64,000 nt of DNA from positions 2,144,001-2,208,000 of the forward strand of contig OY759599.1 in NCBI GenBank assembly GCA_963662465.1. The letters run 5' to 3'. The number at the start of each line of letters is the position of its first letter. Within the stretch, counting starts at the first letter, position 1. The position numbers and the translations under genes were made by a program. Under the pieces are notes generated by a model that worked only from the letters and a program-made list of their open reading frames with translations, had not been told where the DNA came from and did not search any database. This stretch comes from Desulfatiglandales bacterium. GTDB taxonomy: Bacteria; Desulfobacterota; DSM-4660; Desulfatiglandales; Desulfatiglandaceae. Shown piece by piece: positions 26,454-34,427 of the stretch.

Positions 26454-26660
26454 ATGGAATCAATAGAGTTCACTGCGGATATTCAAAACGGGATTATCAA
26501 ACTCCCTGATGAATACAAAAATCTACCGAAAAAAGCAAAAATTAAAATTATGTTTATTCCTTATGAAGTTCAAAAAAGAAAATTAGATAGTCTTTTCGAT
26601 AGCGCCGTCCGGGTTAATAAAATAGATAAATTTGACAGGGATTCCTTACATGAAAGATAG
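26454..26660 (+). CDS. Putative antitoxin
   Basis: 68 aa, EFTADIQNGIIKLP, ends FDRDSLHER (common in PIN partners); overlaps the toxin. Confidence 0.75.
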   Translation: MESIEFTADIQNGIIKLPDEYKNLPKKAKIKIMFIPYEVQKRKLDSLFDSAVRVNKIDKFDRDSLHER

Positions 26661-27078
26661 GATTTTTATAGATACCAATGTGTTGGTGTATATCCATTTA
26701 TTTGACAAAGAGAGTCAAGACAAAAGAAAAGCATTGCAGAATCTTATGCACAGGAGGATTGATGCTGAATTAATTATTAATGTGCAGGTAATAAATGAAT
26801 TTTATAATGTCCTTTTAAGAAAAAATATTGAAGATAATGTAATACAGAAAAAGATACATTCACAATTGGAAATATGCTTAACTTCCGAGTTAAGTTTAAA
26901 AACTGTTTTCAGCGCATGGGAATTAAGAGAAAAATACAAATATTCTTATTGGGACAGCTTGATATTAGCATCAGCTTTGGAAAACAGTTGTTCAATTATC
27001 TATTCAGAAGATATGCAACACGGCCAGGTCATAGAGGATAATTTGAAGATTATAAATCCCTTTGAAATAAGTTTATAA
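26650..27078 (+). CDS. vapC: PIN-domain (VapC) toxin
   Basis: IFIDTNVLVY, QVINEF, SYWDSLILASAL, YSEDMQHG; very AT-rich. Confidence 0.92.
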   Translation: MKDRIFIDTNVLVYIHLFDKESQDKRKALQNLMHRRIDAELIINVQVINEFYNVLLRKNIEDNVIQKKIHSQLEICLTSELSLKTVFSAWELREKYKYSYWDSLILASALENSCSIIYSEDMQHGQVIEDNLKIINPFEISL

Positions 27079-28565
27079 GTTTACAACGTCCCCATGCACA
27101 CTGGATCCGAGTGTGGTGGGGCATAAATTTGCGTCCCTGGCACGGGCGAAACATTTGGGGTTAGCGGTTCCTTCAGCCATCGCCATCAGGGTTGAAGCCA
27201 ACGAATTTTACCGCCGGAAGAAATTCTGGCCCAAAGACCTTCAGCGCGAAATCCAGGACTTGGCTAGGGAAATCGGCCTTTCCAAAGGTGTTTCGGTACG
27301 GTCCTCATCCACCCAAGAGGACCTCGAGGGAAAAAGCTTTGCCGGCCAGTATGAGACCTATCTGGATATACGGGACGAAGTTGATTTAAAGGACAAGATT
27401 CAAAAATGCTGGAAAAGCGCTGAATCGCAACTTGTTTTTGATTATCTTAACGATCGATCGGGTCTAAATGAAGCGCCGCCCATGTCTGTCGTGATTCAAA
27501 GGATGGTCCATGCCAAAGCGGCCGGGGTTGCGTTCAGCCGAAATCCCATGTACCCATTAAGGGACGAGGTGGTCGTCGAAGGCGTCCCCGGTTTGGGCGA
27601 TAAGCTGGTTAGCGGCCATGTCACCCCTTATCGTGTCTTTGTCAAAAGCGGTCGCATCGTAAAAGATAAAACCACTTTCAAAATGAACCCATCAAACGAT
27701 GTGGTCATAGCGAATATAAAGTGGCGCGAAATCGCGGCATTGGCCAAAAAGGCCGAGGCGAATGCGGGCAGGAAACCCCAGGACATCGAATGGGCCATTG
27801 ACGGCAACGACATGCTGTGGCTTCTCCAGTCTCGCCCCATTACGACCATTACTGAAACAGACCTCAAGGCGCCTCCCGGAACCTGGACGCGAAAGATCGC
27901 GGAGGATCTCTGGGCAGACCGCCTCACGCCCTTACTGGCTGATGCCATGCTTAAAAATGCACCCCGGTTTGATCTGTCAAGAAACTCGGAATTCTTGAAA
28001 GTTCCCGTCATTAAACCGGCCATGTCCGTCATCAACGGATTCCTTTATGTCAACTGTGAAAGCCTGAAGCAGGTTCTGACCCTGGTTCCGGACAAACTCC
28101 GCATCAATGAACTTCGAAGCCTGTTCCCGCCGGGGTTCGAAATCGATTCCGTACCGTCGCCCTCCGCAAAAAAGCTGCTTTCATTTGCTGTTCGGGCAAT
28201 ATGCCTGAGCTTCCCGCAGCCCCAGGGGAACCCTCTCTTTTGCCGACATCTCTCCCGCCGGCACCTGAAAAAGCTGAAAGAAAATCTGAACAGAATTGAG
28301 CGCTTACCCGATGCCACGGCCGCACAGGCGCTAAGCAAAACCAAGGAGTCCATCGAATGCCTCGCGCTTCTTCAGGAAAAAAACCAGTGGCCCTATCTTT
28401 ACGCCACGGTTTTCACCTGGGCGTTGAGATGGGTGGTTATGGACCTGGGAGAGCTGTCCTACTCAGATTTTCTTTACCTTCTGAGTGCAAACACCGACAA
28501 TATTACCACCCATATCGAAGTTGAGATGAGGAAGCTGACGGCATCGGTTAGAAATGACGAGACGG

Positions 28566-28617
28566 TCTTGGGCGCTAACCAAAATGGAACCAGTTTTGCT
28601 ACTCCAAACGGAACCAG
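28566..28617. repeat. Terminal repeat, istB side
   Basis: TCTTGGGCGCTAACCAAAATGGAACCAG followed by a second unit GCTACTCCAAACGGAACCAG. Confidence 0.85.
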
Positions 28618-28827
28618 ATATTGCGCACTGGTCTTTTCCTTTTAGAAGGGTTTTCTTGTAAATTTGTTAGAGGTTGCATGAAAGAGTATATCAGATGGTA
28701 TTTTAAAAATGCTGGTGAGACACGTAGCGTTCTGGTTGAAGAATCAGTGATGAGGATACCATCAATATGGTGATGGCAGAGAAGAGGGGATTAGATTTTT
28801 CGGTTAAGGGCAATGCTTATTGAGGAA

Positions 28828-29037
28828 CTATTTGTCTATGTCATAGTCGTCCGGTAAATTCAGGAGGCCTCCCTTCGCCAATTGATCCTCAATCAAATAT
28901 CCAATTTCCCCGTTTTTTTTCAGCTGTAGAATCATCCATTTGGGGAGACGAATGGTGAGCAGTTCACGTCTCAAATGTTCCGGTTTCTTTCTTCGGCCGG
29001 CGCCTACCCGTTTTCCACCTCTCATTTCAAGCTCCAA
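28828..29037 (-). CDS. Small basic DNA-binding-like passenger protein
   Basis: RGGKRVGAGRRKK motif followed by LLTIRLPKWMI (RHH-like strand). Confidence 0.6.
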   Translation of the reverse strand: MELEMRGGKRVGAGRRKKPEHLRRELLTIRLPKWMILQLKKNGEIGYLIEDQLAKGGLLNLPDDYDIDK

Positions 29038-29123
29038 GACAAGGTAATTTCTGATATTCGTGTAACGAGATTCAAACAGACCGGTGATATTCAGACCTCA
29101 AAACCGGCCCTTTGGCGAACATC

Positions 29124-29843
29124 TCATTTTCTGAGGGAAGGACCATCAATATGAATGTTGATGCAGCGATGGTTGAGACGATCCAGCAAGGCATCGACCA
29201 TGTCCTTTGGTTCAAGCAGCGAATACCATTGTTCAGGTTGAAGATTGGTCGTAATAATTGTGGACCGACCGGCTTCATAGCGATCTTTCATGAGTTTAAA
29301 AAAGGCGTTCATCTGCTCTTTTTTGAGGGTCAGGTATCCCAGTTCATCGAGCAGAAGCAGGTCATATCTGCAAAGGGCATTGAGGAGTTTCGGGGTGGAC
29401 CGATCTGCCAAAGACGCATAGAGCTGATCCAGCAAATCCTGAACATTATAAAAACGCCCCCGGTACCCGGCAATAATGGCTTGACGAAGGATCCCCACGG
29501 CCAATCCCGTTTTGCCGACGCCGGTTTTTCCATGGAACACGATGTTTTCTCTTCGGCTGATAAAGTCAAGGCCGGACAACGTCATGATCCGGCTCTTCTG
29601 TATTCCCGGCTGAAGATCAAACGGAAAGGAGTTGAGGGTCCATTCCCATGGAAGCTTTGCAATCTGGACCCGATAGATCATGCTGCGCTCCTGCCGGAAA
29701 CGTAATTCCTCAGCCAGGAGATTGTAGATGACCTCGTGAATGGAAAAACCGTTCTTTTCAGCCGAAGCCAACTGTTCTTCGAGAGCCTTCAGCATGCCTT
29801 TAAACTTCAAATCAATGAGTAACTGTTCAATTTTCTTTTTCAT
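29124..29843 (-). CDS. istB: IS21 helper AAA+ ATPase
   Basis: GKTGVGKT, LLLLDELGY, IITTN, ALLDRLNHR. Confidence 0.95.
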   Translation of the reverse strand: MKKKIEQLLIDLKFKGMLKALEEQLASAEKNGFSIHEVIYNLLAEELRFRQERSMIYRVQIAKLPWEWTLNSFPFDLQPGIQKSRIMTLSGLDFISRRENIVFHGKTGVGKTGLAVGILRQAIIAGYRGRFYNVQDLLDQLYASLADRSTPKLLNALCRYDLLLLDELGYLTLKKEQMNAFFKLMKDRYEAGRSTIITTNLQPEQWYSLLEPKDMVDALLDRLNHRCINIHIDGPSLRK

Positions 29844-31222
29844 AGATCAAAAAAGTCTCCCGCGATATAATCGAGAATAATGTTTTCCAGACGCGACAAA
29901 TCAAAAAGTCCATATTTAAGCGCCTGTGTTATGGCTTTCAAAAAAGGTTCCCCGGGATAAGTGCGTTTCAGATGAAGCAACCGACGTAACTTGACCACAC
30001 CGCGACCGTGACTTCTTTTCTTCAGTTCAGCCACATACTCATCCAGGATGGCATCCTCTCCCGTCAACAGCTGTTCTTCTTTTGAAGGGATTCGGGGATC
30101 TTTTTTTCTTCGAATGGGAACATGGTGACCGGGCAGGGTTGTTCGGGTGTTGCGTTTATCCAGTATGCGGTCATGTTCCGCCACTTTTGTGTTTTTGTCG
30201 TAAACGATGACCTTGAGCCAATGTTTCTGTACTTCCAGGGAGTTCCCAATCAGCGCTTCAGGGACTGAATAGCGGTTGGTGTCCAAGTGCACATATCCCT
30301 GAACATCGGCTACCCTGTGTTCTGCCACATAGACTGGCGGCTGGTATGCCGGTAAATCAATGAGATATGGCTTTTCAATGACATAGGCCTCATCCGGCGT
30401 CATCCCTAAAGCCCGTTTAAACTTTTTATCGCTTGTATTCCGGCACCAGTCGATTGCCTGCCGGTTCAAATCCTGCCAGCTAACAAATGTTCTACCGGGA
30501 AGAAAATTGTTTTCCACAAAATGAAAAGGCCTTTCCACACGAGCACTTCGATTGGCGTCTCCTACAGCATGGGCCTCAAACCGGGTTCCATACATATCGC
30601 CGAAGTATTTCATTTCAGGCGCAATCAATGCATCAGGCCCGGTGCCGCCGGCCACAATAACATTGGTGTTGTCAACCATGCACCGGGAACACACCCCGTC
30701 CATAAACTCGAATGCTTTTTTTAGGAAAACCTTGCACTCAAACCGGGTAAAACAGGGGTAATACTGAATAAAAATCCTTCGGCAAAAGGCCAGGGTCAGG
30801 GACGCGCACTGGGTCGACATTTTTTTCCCATTAATGACAACCAGATGGGGTGACGTATCATGCTGCATCTCCTGACCGGGTTTAAAATGGTATTGGCCCG
30901 CCCGTCTTTTTTTACGTTCCCGGATCTCGTACTTTCTCATAATCCAGGTCAGACTCTGATAAGGGATTTTGATCTGTTGGCGGCTTTCCAGTTCCTCGGC
31001 TACTCGCACGGCATTTCCTTTACATTCCTTGAAAAGCTCGCGGATCAACGGGACATGTTCTTCATACCGGGAGTTCCTTTGGGGTACCGCCTCTTCGTCA
31101 TGATCATCTAAAACCTTCGTGACGGTATTGCGACCGGCCTTCAGGGTTTTGGCGATGTCGCGCAAACTCATGCCGGTTTTTTTCAATTCCACAATGGCAT
31201 CTTTTTTGGATTGTCGGATCAT
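29840..31222 (-). CDS. istA: IS21 DDE transposase
   Basis: N-terminal HTH; PGQEMQHD, VDNT, RVERPFHFVENNF; LDTNRYSVP. Confidence 0.95.
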   Translation of the reverse strand: MIRQSKKDAIVELKKTGMSLRDIAKTLKAGRNTVTKVLDDHDEEAVPQRNSRYEEHVPLIRELFKECKGNAVRVAEELESRQQIKIPYQSLTWIMRKYEIRERKKRRAGQYHFKPGQEMQHDTSPHLVVINGKKMSTQCASLTLAFCRRIFIQYYPCFTRFECKVFLKKAFEFMDGVCSRCMVDNTNVIVAGGTGPDALIAPEMKYFGDMYGTRFEAHAVGDANRSARVERPFHFVENNFLPGRTFVSWQDLNRQAIDWCRNTSDKKFKRALGMTPDEAYVIEKPYLIDLPAYQPPVYVAEHRVADVQGYVHLDTNRYSVPEALIGNSLEVQKHWLKVIVYDKNTKVAEHDRILDKRNTRTTLPGHHVPIRRKKDPRIPSKEEQLLTGEDAILDEYVAELKKRSHGRGVVKLRRLLHLKRTYPGEPFLKAITQALKYGLFDLSRLENIILDYIAGDFFDL

Positions 31223-32103
31223 AATTGGGTCGCTTTCTTGAGTTCCAGTGCTTGTTTTTCTATCTTTTTCACCCAGGTTTTGAGCGTTTGTTTCTTCAAC
31301 TGATCGCTTTTTGGGTAATGGACATGCGAAACGGTTTTCACCAGACGTTTGAGAACCGCATATACCATTTCAATATCCTTGAACCATTTGCCTTCCGGTC
31401 CATCATGAACTTCTTTGGCTTGTTTAGACTGGGTTCTTTGTTCGAGAACTTTTATGAAAAGGGATGGATTTTCCAGCATGTGGTCTCGAACAGACCGGTT
31501 GCTTTTCTGGTAATGTGCGTAGAAACGGGCCAGTTCCCTTGTGGATAGAGGTTCTTTTTCCAGGTGGGCCAACAGTTTTTGTGCGTCTTCACCGTTGGCG
31601 CGCGCCAACGGCGCCATGACATGGCTGGCAGCCCAGGTTGAAAGTGAGCCTGCAATCACGGTTCTCAAAATATTTTCCGGCAGGGCTTCAACCAGGTCCA
31701 GCCGCCGTTTTACAAAACTCTTGTCGCGCCCTATTCGGGTTGCAATATGGGAGAGGCTGCACCCAAAACGCCGATGTAATTCCTGAAGTAAAACAGACTG
31801 CTCAATGACTTCCCATTGCCGTTCATTGGCCTTGGTTAAAAGCGAAAACATGGCATTTTGTTCGTTTTCTTTTGAGAATTGGACACATATCCGGTCCTTT
31901 CCACAAGCACAAAGCGCTCGAACACGCAGGTAGCCATCAATCAGAATCAGTTTGTCTTTTTCTTCAATAGCCAGGGCCGGAACGATCTGCCCGTAAGTTT
32001 CGATGGAATCCCTCAATCGCTTTAAAGCCTGGTGATTCATTATCCGGCAATGAGCGTAACGCAACTCCAGCAAATGAATATCAACGGTTCGGATGGATTC
32101 CAT
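31219..32103 (-). CDS. ParB/Srx-domain protein with HTH
   Basis: LRDSIETYGQIVP...LIDGYLRVRAL (ParB-like, non-canonical GxxR), SLSHIATRIGRDKSFVKRRL; overlaps the istA start. Confidence 0.85.
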   Translation of the reverse strand: MESIRTVDIHLLELRYAHCRIMNHQALKRLRDSIETYGQIVPALAIEEKDKLILIDGYLRVRALCACGKDRICVQFSKENEQNAMFSLLTKANERQWEVIEQSVLLQELHRRFGCSLSHIATRIGRDKSFVKRRLDLVEALPENILRTVIAGSLSTWAASHVMAPLARANGEDAQKLLAHLEKEPLSTRELARFYAHYQKSNRSVRDHMLENPSLFIKVLEQRTQSKQAKEVHDGPEGKWFKDIEMVYAVLKRLVKTVSHVHYPKSDQLKKQTLKTWVKKIEKQALELKKATQL

Positions 32104-32500
32104 ACCCAGTCTCCCGAAAGATTTCCTCTATGGTTTCTCCAAGACTGACCCAATTTCCTTGCCGGATCTCCTTTACCTGTTTCACAATCACAGGACGTCT
32201 GGGAAGCGAAAGAACCTGAAACAGACGGCCATCAAACCCAATCAGATCCTTGTCCAACAAGCCATCGCGGGCATCGATATATTGATCCAAATGCACCTTT
32301 AAAATCCGGCAGATTCTGTCGTAACCATAATAAGAGAGCCCGTTTTTGTCAGATACCAACACCAGAAAAATGTAGAGCAGCAGCTCATGATGATTCAGGC
32401 TCTCCCAAAAGCCGTTTCTCAAAAAACGATGCTCCAGAAAGCCGAAGCTTCCATTGATGACACGCACTCTTTCGGGAAAAAGGACTCTTTTTTTGATCAT
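32081..32500 (-). CDS. Winged-helix-like protein (replication-initiator-type HTH)
   Basis: ELLLYIFLVLVSDKNGLSYYGYDRICRIL...ARDGLLDKDLI; AGGAG RBS; overlaps the ParB-like gene. Confidence 0.7.
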   Translation of the reverse strand: MIKKRVLFPERVRVINGSFGFLEHRFLRNGFWESLNHHELLLYIFLVLVSDKNGLSYYGYDRICRILKVHLDQYIDARDGLLDKDLIGFDGRLFQVLSLPRRPVIVKQVKEIRQGNWVSLGETIEEIFRETGYGIHPNR

Positions 32501-32512
32501 TTTTTTCTCCTG

Positions 32513-32956
32513 TCATGGATATGGGGTTTTCTCAAAGCCTGTTACATCTGAAAAAACCCTCCCTGCATAAGCACGGCGAGGAAAATGGTCCACAACAACC
32601 CCGATCGACCCGCAAAAAAGACAGCTGGGTCGGTTCCCCGACCGCTTTTTGGGTTCAATATCACAGTCTTTTTGAGGTGTTGAACTATCATCACCAGGGT
32701 TCAGTCCATTTTTTTTGGATTTTTTTGTTTTTTCGTACAAACGACGGCGCTCTTTCCCTTTTTTCGAATTGCGGTATTTCCCCTGAGCTTTCCGGTGCAG
32801 CTGTCTTTGGCGTATCCTGCGACATCGTTCCCCACAATAGGCCTGGCCACGCCAACACGACCGACAGACGTGAAAAAAGCAACCACAACATCGGCATTGA
32901 ACCACTCTTAAAAGGACATCTCCCATCATTCCGGCCTTGCAATTGGCCGGAAACAC
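32513..32956 (-). CDS. Cys-rich zinc-finger protein (start more likely the ATG near 32929)
   Basis: CRCCG..F..CRSCWRGQAYCGERC, a basic helix, and C-terminal CLFCG. Confidence 0.7.
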   Translation of the reverse strand: MFPANCKAGMMGDVLLRVVQCRCCGCFFHVCRSCWRGQAYCGERCRRIRQRQLHRKAQGKYRNSKKGKERRRLYEKTKKSKKNGLNPGDDSSTPQKDCDIEPKKRSGNRPSCLFCGSIGVVVDHFPRRAYAGRVFSDVTGFEKTPYP

Positions 32957-33005
32957 ACTTATATAAAATTGGCGTGTGTGTGGCTTCCGGCTCTATCCGG
33001 TGGTC

Positions 33006-33041
33006 AAAAAAGAAGGCCCGAAGCGGCTACTTCGGGCCTTC
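33006..33041 (-). terminator. Intrinsic terminator in the leader of the element operon
   Basis: Perfect 12-bp stem GAAGGCCCGAAG/CTTCGGGCCTTC followed by T6 on the minus strand. Confidence 0.8.
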
Positions 33042-33242
33042 ACCATCCATTCTACAAAGTAAATCGCATTTCCACTTAACCAAGCCTCTGTCTTGGAAGA
33101 AGAAAACCAAATCCAAAGAAAATAGATTTTATAAAAATTTATTGAAAAGTAAATCTACATCAACGACTCCTTTGCCGCCACTTATGGATCCCTCATCGTC
33201 CGCTATACCTGAGGGCCGTACTCACCGGCGGTGACAGCCAAT

Positions 33243-33292
33243 GGTTCAATTTCCATTAGCAAACTTGGTTCAGTTTTGATTAGCGTTGAAGA
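33243..33292. repeat. Terminal repeat, leader side
   Basis: Reverse complement reads TCTTCAACGCTAATCAAAACTGAACCAA then GCTAATGGAAATTGAACCAT. Confidence 0.85.
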
Positions 33293-34427
33293 CGGTTCTT
33301 GAAAGGTTTTTGAACCGAAGCCCTGAACAACTTGTGGGGTCTCTCCCTCGCCCACTCCAGGAAAAGCTCGATATTTTCCTCTCCAAATACGGGTGTCGCG
33401 CCCGCCATAGAACCCTTTACCTGAAACGATGGGCGGAAGCGCCGGAGGAGGTTCTCGGGATGATGGCAGCCCTTCTCGGAAATCCGGTGAACGGGGGTAA
33501 AGCGGAAAGCGCCGGGCCTGATGACCCTGTGATAGTCATACGGCGGAAATTGCCATGGCGCCTCCGTGTCGTACTCCGACCCCTTTTAAAATTTACCTGC
33601 AATTTTTTAAACCTGCGGGAAGATCTAAGATTTTTGCTCGACAAAATCCTCTATCTTGTCAGGCAATCCGTGATAACCCTTGGAAAACACACGGGCCTGG
33701 GTGAAGGCGTCCTGTTTCTGACCCAATCCGAATTGGACCAGGTGGTTGACGGCAGTATCGATTTTGAAGATGCAAGGCTGTTGGCCGATGCCGGGCGAGA
33801 TGCATTCCTGAAGCAATCCGATGTTTACACGTTTTATATTGACGGCAGGCCAATGGATGAACTCCCGTCAAACGCAAAAATCATGCGGGGCATTGGAACC
33901 AGTCCCGGCAGGGCAACGGGAAGGGCCAGAATCGTGGATGATCCAACAAAACACCCTATTCAAAAAGGGGATATCCTGGTTGCCAAAAATACCGATCCCG
34001 GCTGGACGCCCATCTTACGGATCGTCAGCGGGATCGTTGTCGAAGAAGGGGGAATACTGAACCACTGCTCTATCGTGGCCCGGGAACTGGGAATCCCGGC
34101 GGTTGTCGGCGTCCGACAGGCCACCCGAAAAATACCGGAAAACGCCCTCATTACCATCGACGGGGGCTTTGGCGCCGTTCAAATGGCGGATTCAGGGCTG
34201 CGCACCAAAACCCATTATTGACATTTTGGGCTTGGTCCTAACTTTTCCCACTGTTAAGCGCCTGTTTAAAAGAGAACCGCGGAATGCTTTTCTTTTCTTT
34301 GACAGCGCTCAAAAAATAAAGCAGAATAAACATCCCTCAATTCCATGAAATCCGTTGAAGTTCACCCAGCGTTTGTCAGGAGCGATTCAGCGCTTTTGCC
34401 AACCGTTGAAAATCCCGGAGGCCCATT

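Follow-up and report, generated by a model that had tools for sequence, protein, structure and literature searches.

A 64,000-nt stretch of the genome of a Desulfatiglandales bacterium (contig OY759599.1, positions 2,144,001 to 2,208,000 of the forward strand; hereafter the window) carries a transposon of the IS21 insertion sequence (IS) family inside a dikinase-like gene. In addition to the transposase IstA and its helper ATPase IstB, the element encodes a Zn-ribbon protein, a winged helix-turn-helix (wHTH) protein, a ParB-like protein and a small ribbon-helix-helix (RHH)-like protein, and a 16-bp palindrome lies within its parB gene (Table 1). The limits given in Table 1 were fixed by 25 two-ended copies in the same genome and define a unit of 4,725 bp. 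The original prediction, which had placed the element at 28566..33292, was correct as to the element, with each coordinate one base too far outward. All 25 two-ended copies start CTTGGGCGCTAAC and finish GATTAGCGTTGAAG, and each end consists of two units of ~23 bp (GCTAAT-n-TGA(A/C)CCA), which are kept across 11 relatives; the first 12 nt of the gene-proximal end are conserved in relatives with IstA 53-60% identical. These terminal repeats, described in the original prediction as multi-unit ends in the style of IS21, were read from the end sequences, and an automated repeat search of the window did not report them. The insertion into the dikinase gene was also described there as clean. Excising the element with one copy of ACGGT rejoins the two halves in frame (1454 + 925 nt, 793 codons), and in run X1, a public run bearing the same organism label as the source genome, a contig with a depth of 44.5 joins 28559 to 33290 with seven ambiguous letters. 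This contig represents the empty dikinase site, indicating that the insertion in the window is polymorphic and recent.

Table 1. The IS21-family element, its genes and sites, and the interrupted host gene, in window positions
Feature	Position	Strand	Description
5' part of interrupted gene	27113..28566	+	Phosphoenolpyruvate (PEP)/pyruvate dikinase-like; PPDK_N
Target-site duplication, left copy	28562..28566	.	ACGGT
Mobile unit	28567..33291	-	IS21-family transposon, six genes; 25 copies with the same ends, empty site in run X1
IRR	28567..28622	-	Distal terminal repeat, CTTGGGCGCTAAC..., two units (…GGAACCAG)
Small protein	28828..29037	-	Basic, RHH-like, 69 aa as listed; probably starts at the fifth codon (29025), giving 65 aa
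IstB	29124..29843	-	AAA+ helper ATPase, 239 aa
IstA	29840..31222	-	DDE transposase, 460 aa
ParB-like protein	31219..32103	-	294 aa; ParB/Srx N-domain, helix-turn-helix (HTH) domain, family-specific three-helix C-terminus
Palindrome inside parB	31594..31609	.	GTTGGCGCGCGCCAAC, 16 bp, perfect, codons 165-170 (PLARAN); candidate parS-like site
wHTH protein	32081..32500	-	Winged helix, 139 aa
Zn-ribbon protein	32513..32956	-	Zn-ribbon/basic, Cys-rich, listed at 147 aa; an internal ATG near 32929 is the probable start
Leader hairpin	33012..33041	-	13 pairs, then T-run; terminator-like, between IRL and first gene
IRL	33237..33291	-	Gene-proximal terminal repeat, CTTCAACGCTAAT..., two ~23-bp units (GCTAAT-n-TGAACCA)
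Target-site duplication, right copy	33292..33296	.	ACGGT
3' part of interrupted gene	33297..34221	+	Dikinase-like; PEP-utilizers mobile domain

All six minus-strand frames are open at the places first proposed for them, and the tight coupling described from the wHTH gene to istB is borne out by overlaps of 23 nt (wHTH/ParB), 4 nt (ParB/IstA) and 4 nt (IstA/IstB). The gap between the Zn-ribbon and wHTH genes is 12 nt. The Zn-ribbon, ParB-like, IstA and IstB genes form the conserved core of the element, and the winged-helix and small RHH-like genes are add-on modules. IS21 itself is about half the length of this 4.7-kb element.

IstB, encoded directly downstream of istA, matches PF01695 (200.6 bits) and NF038214 (225 bits, cutoff 200) and also DnaC-like helicase loaders. 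IstA matches Mu-transpos_C_2 (E = 9.6e-17) and aligns to the IS5376 IstA structure (8q4d, E = 1.1e-15); its match to NF033546 is significant (129 bits, E = 1.9e-37) and lies below the curated cutoff of 160 bits. Residues D122, D184 and E230 do not vary among 15 relatives and, by our reading of the IS5376 IstA alignment, correspond to the DDE positions. On these alignments IstA is a divergent IS21 transposase. Where PMC10122671 describes the IS21 family, its members have two open reading frames (ORFs), istA followed by an overlapping istB, together with multi-unit ends and short target duplications. The present element shares with IS21 and IS5376 the DDE transposase and overlapping AAA+ ATPase genes, the two repeat units per end and the short target duplications, but has six ORFs, at least four of which (Zn-ribbon, ParB, IstA and IstB) are constant in the clade, in contrast to the two in that description. 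The legend to Fig. 1 of the same paper gives a terminal CA as shown or required for IS5376 ends, whereas the ends here read 5'-CTT…AAG-3' in 25/25 copies (…GAAG-3' and …CAAG-3'). Together with the subthreshold score of IstA against the NCBIfam IS21 model, these features describe a member of the IS21 family by chemistry and ends that departs from the family in gene content and terminal dinucleotide. Full-text literature searches, which did not extend to ISfinder or TnPedia, turned up no published IS21 element that carries ParB or further accessory genes.

The association of ParB with IstA was measured from both directions. In a ParB-anchored scan of one genome per species, which returned 72 loci (37 of at least 3 kb), IstA is directly downstream of ParB in 35 of the 37; one of the other two ends inside ParB and the second (L075) is a relic. 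In an IstA-anchored scan of metagenome contigs, 80 loci were kept with IstA 42-70% identical, and ParB is directly upstream of IstA in 76 of these. The remaining four have less than 700 nt of upstream sequence, and every locus with more than 700 nt (65/65) has ParB. An even sample of 401 genomes of the phylum gave three loci with IstA of at least 50% identity, all carrying ParB, as well as an IstA lineage of 31% identity with a very divergent ParB and IstA genes of 22-27% identity without ParB. The original prediction had taken close IstA homologues that usually lack the extra genes as the observation that would count against it; in these collections, ParB accompanies the close homologues. It had also called for a comparison of the ParB and IstA phylogenies. 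Among 14 elements, maximum-likelihood trees of ParB, IstA and IstB agree in all well-supported clades, and the pairwise identities of the three proteins correlate with r of 0.94-0.97, as tightly as those of IstA with IstB.

The extra genes lie inside the terminal repeats in every relative with placeable ends, and a Zn-ribbon/basic ORF is found upstream of ParB or wHTH-ParB in every relative inspected, including the subclade with IstA of 42-45% identity. Ratios of nonsynonymous to synonymous substitution rates (dN/dS) against the NaphS2 relative are 0.39 for the Zn-ribbon gene, 0.31 for wHTH, 0.23 for ParB, 0.15 for IstA and 0.06 for IstB, and the small gene has a ratio of 0.12 against the relative L046. 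With all values below 0.6, each of the genes is under purifying selection. The prediction that the extra genes are functional parts of transposition is partly supported, in that they are stable and selected parts of the mobile unit rather than chance cargo; two of the roles envisaged for them, target choice and maintenance of a circular form, are argued against by the data below.

Of the accessory proteins, the Zn-ribbon and small proteins matched no family in Pfam, NCBIfam, PHROGs or PADLOC, and the similar entries in a protein atlas are unnamed clusters. The Zn-ribbon protein has a CxxC…Q-x-YC-x3-C-R signature in common with the ORF upstream of ParB or wHTH in the relatives, across which the general form is CxxC…(Q/R)-x-YC-x2-3-C-R. 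The wHTH protein scores 23.3 bits with HTH_36, just under the cutoff of 25, and has 412 homologues. Its AlphaFold2 (AF2) model (pLDDT 78.7) has a winged-helix core, and a Foldseek search against the PDB returned no match at E ≤0.001 (best Crp, E = 0.067; plasmid Rep N-domains, E ≥0.1), so the protein can be named only as a generic winged helix. The wHTH gene also occurs directly upstream of the ParB-less IstA genes of 22-27% identity, usually behind a Zn-ribbon gene of the same kind, and in this genome paralogues of 58-63% identity stand at the front of tyrosine-recombinase trios (three PF00589 proteins). At one such locus outside the window (L112:874-4977), a wHTH paralogue (58% identical, HTH_36 above cutoff) comes after a Cys-rich ORF and before the three tandem tyrosine-recombinase genes.

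Another 15 copies of the small gene occur in the genome, some in a second type of ParB-IS21 element (type B), some in a third IS21-like type and others beside a serine recombinase. In type B, the small protein is 77-79% identical while ParB, IstA and IstB are only 22-35% identical to those of the window. A type-B locus outside the window, present in two copies in this genome (L113:955-4800), encodes a ParB-like protein (22%), IstA (31%), IstB (35%), a DnaG-type CHC2 zinc ribbon (PF01807), which in type-B elements comes after IstB, and a small RHH-like protein. At another locus present in several copies (L114:180-2636), small-gene paralogues (65-67%) lie just upstream of a 697-aa large serine recombinase and have a similar upstream DNA block. 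The small gene of the window is preceded by a conserved block of its own at ~29040-29095. Comparison of the small protein with RHH families gave scores of only 0.83-0.88, which are a lead only. Because tyrosine- and serine-recombinase elements also carry the wHTH and small genes, these two are generic mobile-element modules rather than cofactors specific to IstA and IstB; the ParB and Zn-ribbon genes are the lineage's own.

This sharing of modules is also what would be expected if the extra genes were selfish or host-directed cargo, serving the host or fighting other mobile elements with no role in the transposition of the element itself, as the wHTH and small genes occur with unrelated recombinases and are untied to IstA/IstB chemistry. 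We give this explanation little credence, however, as no PADLOC defence family was matched, the ParB and Zn-ribbon genes are seen only in IS21-type contexts apart from the relic locus without IstA, the ParB, IstA and IstB trees are congruent, and the conserved cis-site described below lies within the element.

ParB/Spo0J, Noc and KorB are CTP-dependent DNA clamps that load at a palindromic site. The ParB-like protein of the element exceeds the cutoff for HTH_ParB (PF17762, 27.9 bits against 22.6); the ParB_N Pfam reaches only E = 0.12, and the cutoff of TIGR00180 (parB_part) is not reached (43.6 bits against 58.45). A profile of the family matches solved ParB, Noc and KorB proteins with E of 7.6e-15 to 9e-3, and the AF2 model (pLDDT 83.8), which has a ParB/Srx N-domain and an HTH domain, has as its top Foldseek matches CDP/CTP-bound ParB (E = 4e-10), Noc and KorB. 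Like Noc and KorB, the protein stands without ParA. It differs from ParB, Noc and KorB in its family-specific C-terminal third, where a three-helix stretch covers the final 90 residues and bears an invariant GPEG-W-K motif that the solved relatives do not show, and in its CTP-binding boxes. The GERR box reads DGYLR here and aligns to that of M. xanthus ParB as G-Y-L-R, with only the Gly and the last Arg kept, and the Asn of box III is Ala in the window protein and differs among family members. Three arginines (those of boxes I and III and the last one of box II) are invariant, the boxes being mapped by our reading of the alignment. In further contrast to ParB, Noc and KorB, the gene is translationally coupled to a transposase, with a single candidate site per 4.7-kb element. 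A predicted complex of IstA, IstB and ParB received a score of 0.02, which speaks neither for nor against an interaction. The family is large: a word-indexed search gave 956 matches, most of which lie on contigs no longer than 5 kb, the pattern that a repeat would produce, and an exhaustive profile search gave 451 ParB clusters at 50% identity (E ≤1e-30). Records of the lineage are mostly from sulfate reducers and sediment.

The palindrome was found in a perfect-palindrome scan of six complete elements, four of which have GTTGGCGCGCGCCAAC or TATGGCGCGCGCCATA at the same place. There is one palindrome per element, with no second copy or half-site elsewhere in the element. Of its 26 exact occurrences in the genome, 25 fall in the IS copies, one apiece, and the other lies beside a lone element end; among 100 shuffles of the window none gave a match at ≤2 mismatches. 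A set of 92 ParB genes was collected, of which 59 were kept at <85% mutual identity, and 95 conserved degenerate codon columns were compared. The palindrome codons rank 1, 2, 3, 4 and 6 among these columns for lowest synonymous codon entropy. Codons fixed within it include Leu TTG (35/36), Arg CGC (56/59) and Ala GCG (52/55), and Leu outside the palindrome in parB is mostly CTG. The dyad pairs k0 to k7 are complementary in 59, 54, 58, 48, 54, 54, 48 and 42 of the 59 genes, respectively, and several pairs have changed in a compensatory manner, with GC/TA/CG at k4, TA/AT/GC/CG at k6 and four complementary types, mainly GC/TA, at k7. The resulting site classes are TTGG…CCAA, ATTG…CAAT, ATGG…CCAT, GTGG…CCAC and CTGG…CCAG, and at the protein level some of the compensatory changes replace Leu by Ile, Met or Val and Asn by Ile, Met, Thr or Ser. 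A perfect palindrome of at least 14 bp is kept in 40 of the 59 genes, and 438 of 531 cells are complementary in register, compared to 90-249 of 531 when the partner is slid by one to three columns. The type-B ParB genes, which are 18-22% identical (L113 here and L105 in another genome), have at this codon position a different perfect 16-mer of the form GTT(C/T)ATACGTAT(G/A)AAC, which reads GTTCATACGTATGAAC or GTTTATACGTATAAAC with a compensatory pair between the two.

These substitution patterns show that the palindrome is under selection at the DNA level. Its central GCGCGC is the most conserved part, and the invariance of this center favors a protein-DNA site, bound by a dimeric DNA-binding protein, over the loop of an RNA hairpin. 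In one clade (L142, L073, L141, L178, L179, L145, L147, L121 and L174) the palindrome reads ATTGCGCGCGCAAT, with T·A at k4, and Gly, Ser or Thr replaces the first Arg of the ParB helix motif K-R-R-L, which we read as the recognition helix. This is a hint of a possible co-change of protein and site. Two other candidates for a ParB site were rejected. The GCTAAT half of the terminal units has an equivalent half-site in ParB-less relatives, and the repeat arrays in the leader and tail, considered as a ParB array, amount to weak 9-mers (ATTTACTTT, three times) that are not conserved in relatives.

A ParB fold and a palindrome of centromere-like length inside parB bring to mind a classical ParB-parS centromere, which would partition or maintain the element as an excised circle or on a plasmid. 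In Bacillus subtilis, parS lies inside spo0J, and the candidate site here is likewise inside the parB gene. Family scans found neither ParA or another partition ATPase nor a replication initiator among the six ORFs, tblastn against 72,556 plasmid records gave no ParB match, and 25/25 copies are chromosomal insertions. Circle or tandem junctions were absent from the contigs examined, although contigs would rarely show them. The lack of ParA and of plasmid relatives, together with the exclusively chromosomal insertions, makes partition very improbable.

The copies in the 8.16-Mb genome show that the element is an autonomous and recently active IS21-family transposon. The 25 two-ended copies (≥99.4% identity, plus fragments) include 19 of 4,725 bp, two of 4,744 bp and four with nested insertions of other elements, and make up ~1.5% of the genome. 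The 19 plain copies differ at 15 positions in total and have all six frames open; five of the 15 variable positions are in parB, compared to ~2.8 expected, which is not a convincing excess. In run X1, an element depth of ~1143 relative to the flank depth of 44.5 fits ~25 copies. Short direct target duplications of 5-8 bp flank 19 of the 25 (7 bp in nine copies, 8 bp in eight, 6 bp in one and 5 bp in the window copy), and six have none or 1 bp. Metatranscriptome contigs X7 and X9 cover 26/30 bins of a relative of 98-99% identity, though contigs cannot show transcription, and the same variant is also present in a DNA run of that study.

These insertions bear on the role of target choice given to the extra genes by the original prediction. 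As a target selector or immunity factor acting via IstB, ParB would direct insertions or remove IstB from DNA near existing copies, either by itself or together with the Zn-ribbon protein, in the manner of TniQ/TnsD with TnsC or MuA with MuB. Tn7-like elements and Mu resemble the present element in having a DDE enzyme, an AAA+ target-handling ATPase and extra DNA-binding components in the same operon. ParB is translationally coupled to IstA and IstB by 4-nt overlaps, and the overlap or adjacency recurs in relatives. ParB-type proteins stimulate the DNA-bound ATPase ParA. In addition, no copy (0/25) lies inside another copy of the same IS, compared to four that host other elements. However, the nearest copies are ~20 kb apart and are uninformative on short-range immunity, no consensus is visible among the 19 target duplications, and the copies are dispersed, with 15/25 co-directional with replication (origin and terminus placed by GC skew), which is not significant. 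The candidate binding site is inside the element rather than at targets, and the accessory proteins are unrelated to TnsA, TnsD, TniQ and Mu Ner/repressor, with no sign of site-specific targeting. We consider a target selector or immunity factor to be rather improbable, and the compiled insertion sites did not bear out this part of the original prediction.

Two inverted copies, near 5.352 Mb and 6.067 Mb, each have one repeat of the same 7-bp target duplication, CCCTTAT, and this split indicates an inversion of ~0.7 Mb between the copies. For five other copies, a matching duplication was found nowhere in the genome. A split duplication between inverted copies is also compatible with a replication-linked module, in which the accessory proteins, together with the DnaC-like IstB, would bring replication to the transposition intermediate or organize it there, for replicative transposition or for the repair of gaps. 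We keep this alternative in view on account of the similarity of IstB to helicase loaders and the DnaG-type zinc ribbon of the type-B elements, to which may be added the Rep initiator N-domains among the weak top matches of the wHTH model. The Rep similarity is not significant, however, and family scans found no polymerase, primase catalytic domain or helicase in the element. The ordinary target duplications of 19/25 copies are as for simple insertion, and the split duplication has no reciprocal partner and is explained equally well by recombination. We consider replication linkage quite improbable.

Nested insertions were observed in four copies: a 1.9-kb element at the start of the Zn-ribbon gene in two, one keeping its own 7-bp duplication, a 1.8-kb element inside parB in one and a ~113-bp miniature element inside istB in one. 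In a promoter and terminator scan of the element, counts were not above those of shuffles. The sole standout was the leader hairpin, which has 13 pairs, lies downstream of a weak promoter-like site and would stop read-through from the host gene. The hairpin and its T-run are retained nearly letter for letter in the NaphS2 relative despite the diverged surrounding leader and are not kept in more distant relatives. Rfam gave one sub-threshold match on the element, at chance level. Directly upstream of the interrupted dikinase gene, two small overlapping ORFs on the plus strand (68 and 148 aa, 26454-27078) sit in a low-GC island (29-36% GC) and may be toxin-antitoxin-like.

Taken together, the data are best explained by a ParB-palindrome pair that exerts cis control over an IS21-type transposition machine, a reading we hold with moderate confidence and in which the binding of ParB and its effect are inferred. 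In this model, the single 16-bp palindrome, located mid-element within parB, would be bound by a dimer of the ParB-like protein, which from there would assemble a nucleoprotein complex in cis through clamping, spreading or bridging of the kind performed by ParB, Noc and KorB. This complex would govern the element's own IstA/IstB machine, most likely by restraining or timing istAB expression or access to the ends, with no part in target choice. IstA, which binds the two-unit terminal repeats, and IstB, which captures the target, carry out the chemistry as in IS21 and IS5376, and the Zn-ribbon gene is the constant partner gene of ParB. The position of the palindrome inside parB favors such a cis-acting regulatory or architectural role, and the lack of a target consensus and the unbiased orientation of the copies favor control of expression or end access over target choice. 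The palindrome is termed a candidate parS-like site for the cis control of transposition.

Several points weigh against this model. The peptide patterns for both collection scans were taken from proteins of this clade, so the results describe the clade rather than IS21 at large, and the kin are not independent, such that locus counts overstate the support. In 11 of the 59 genes, belonging to the subclade with IstA ~42-45% identical, the palindrome is degenerate, with a perfect dyad of ≤6 bp. With the GERR box and the Asn of box III not kept, a canonical CTP-driven clamp and hydrolysis cycle in the ParB-like protein is doubtful. The correlation with the recognition helix rests on one clade and thus represents one event. 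The palindrome could be bound instead by the Zn-ribbon protein, the wHTH protein, IstA or a host factor. Finally, a repressor operator would be expected near a promoter, and the palindrome sits mid-operon.

By analogy with ParB-parS systems, the pair could go beyond cis control and act as a self-marking device, in which dimers loaded at the palindrome would spread or bridge over the 4.7 kb and act on IstB, or on IstA at the ends, much as ParB acts on ParA or MuA on MuB. We consider this unlikely on present evidence. If it were true, the element would be able to recognize itself, bring its distant ends together and shield both its own sequence and the surrounding DNA from further insertion, and a large IS21 lineage would have arrived independently at a third way of solving transposon self-recognition.

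For the host, copies of the element interrupt genes and flank at least one inversion. IS21 provides one of the structurally best understood transposition machines, and the lineage described here always adds ParB-like and Zn-ribbon proteins to it. The co-evolving palindrome in parB offers a concrete protein-site pair that can be tested on this structurally solved machine. If ParB does govern IstA and IstB, the ParB clamp family would gain a role in the control of transposition, and the element would provide a compact model of transposon self-sensing or self-restraint.

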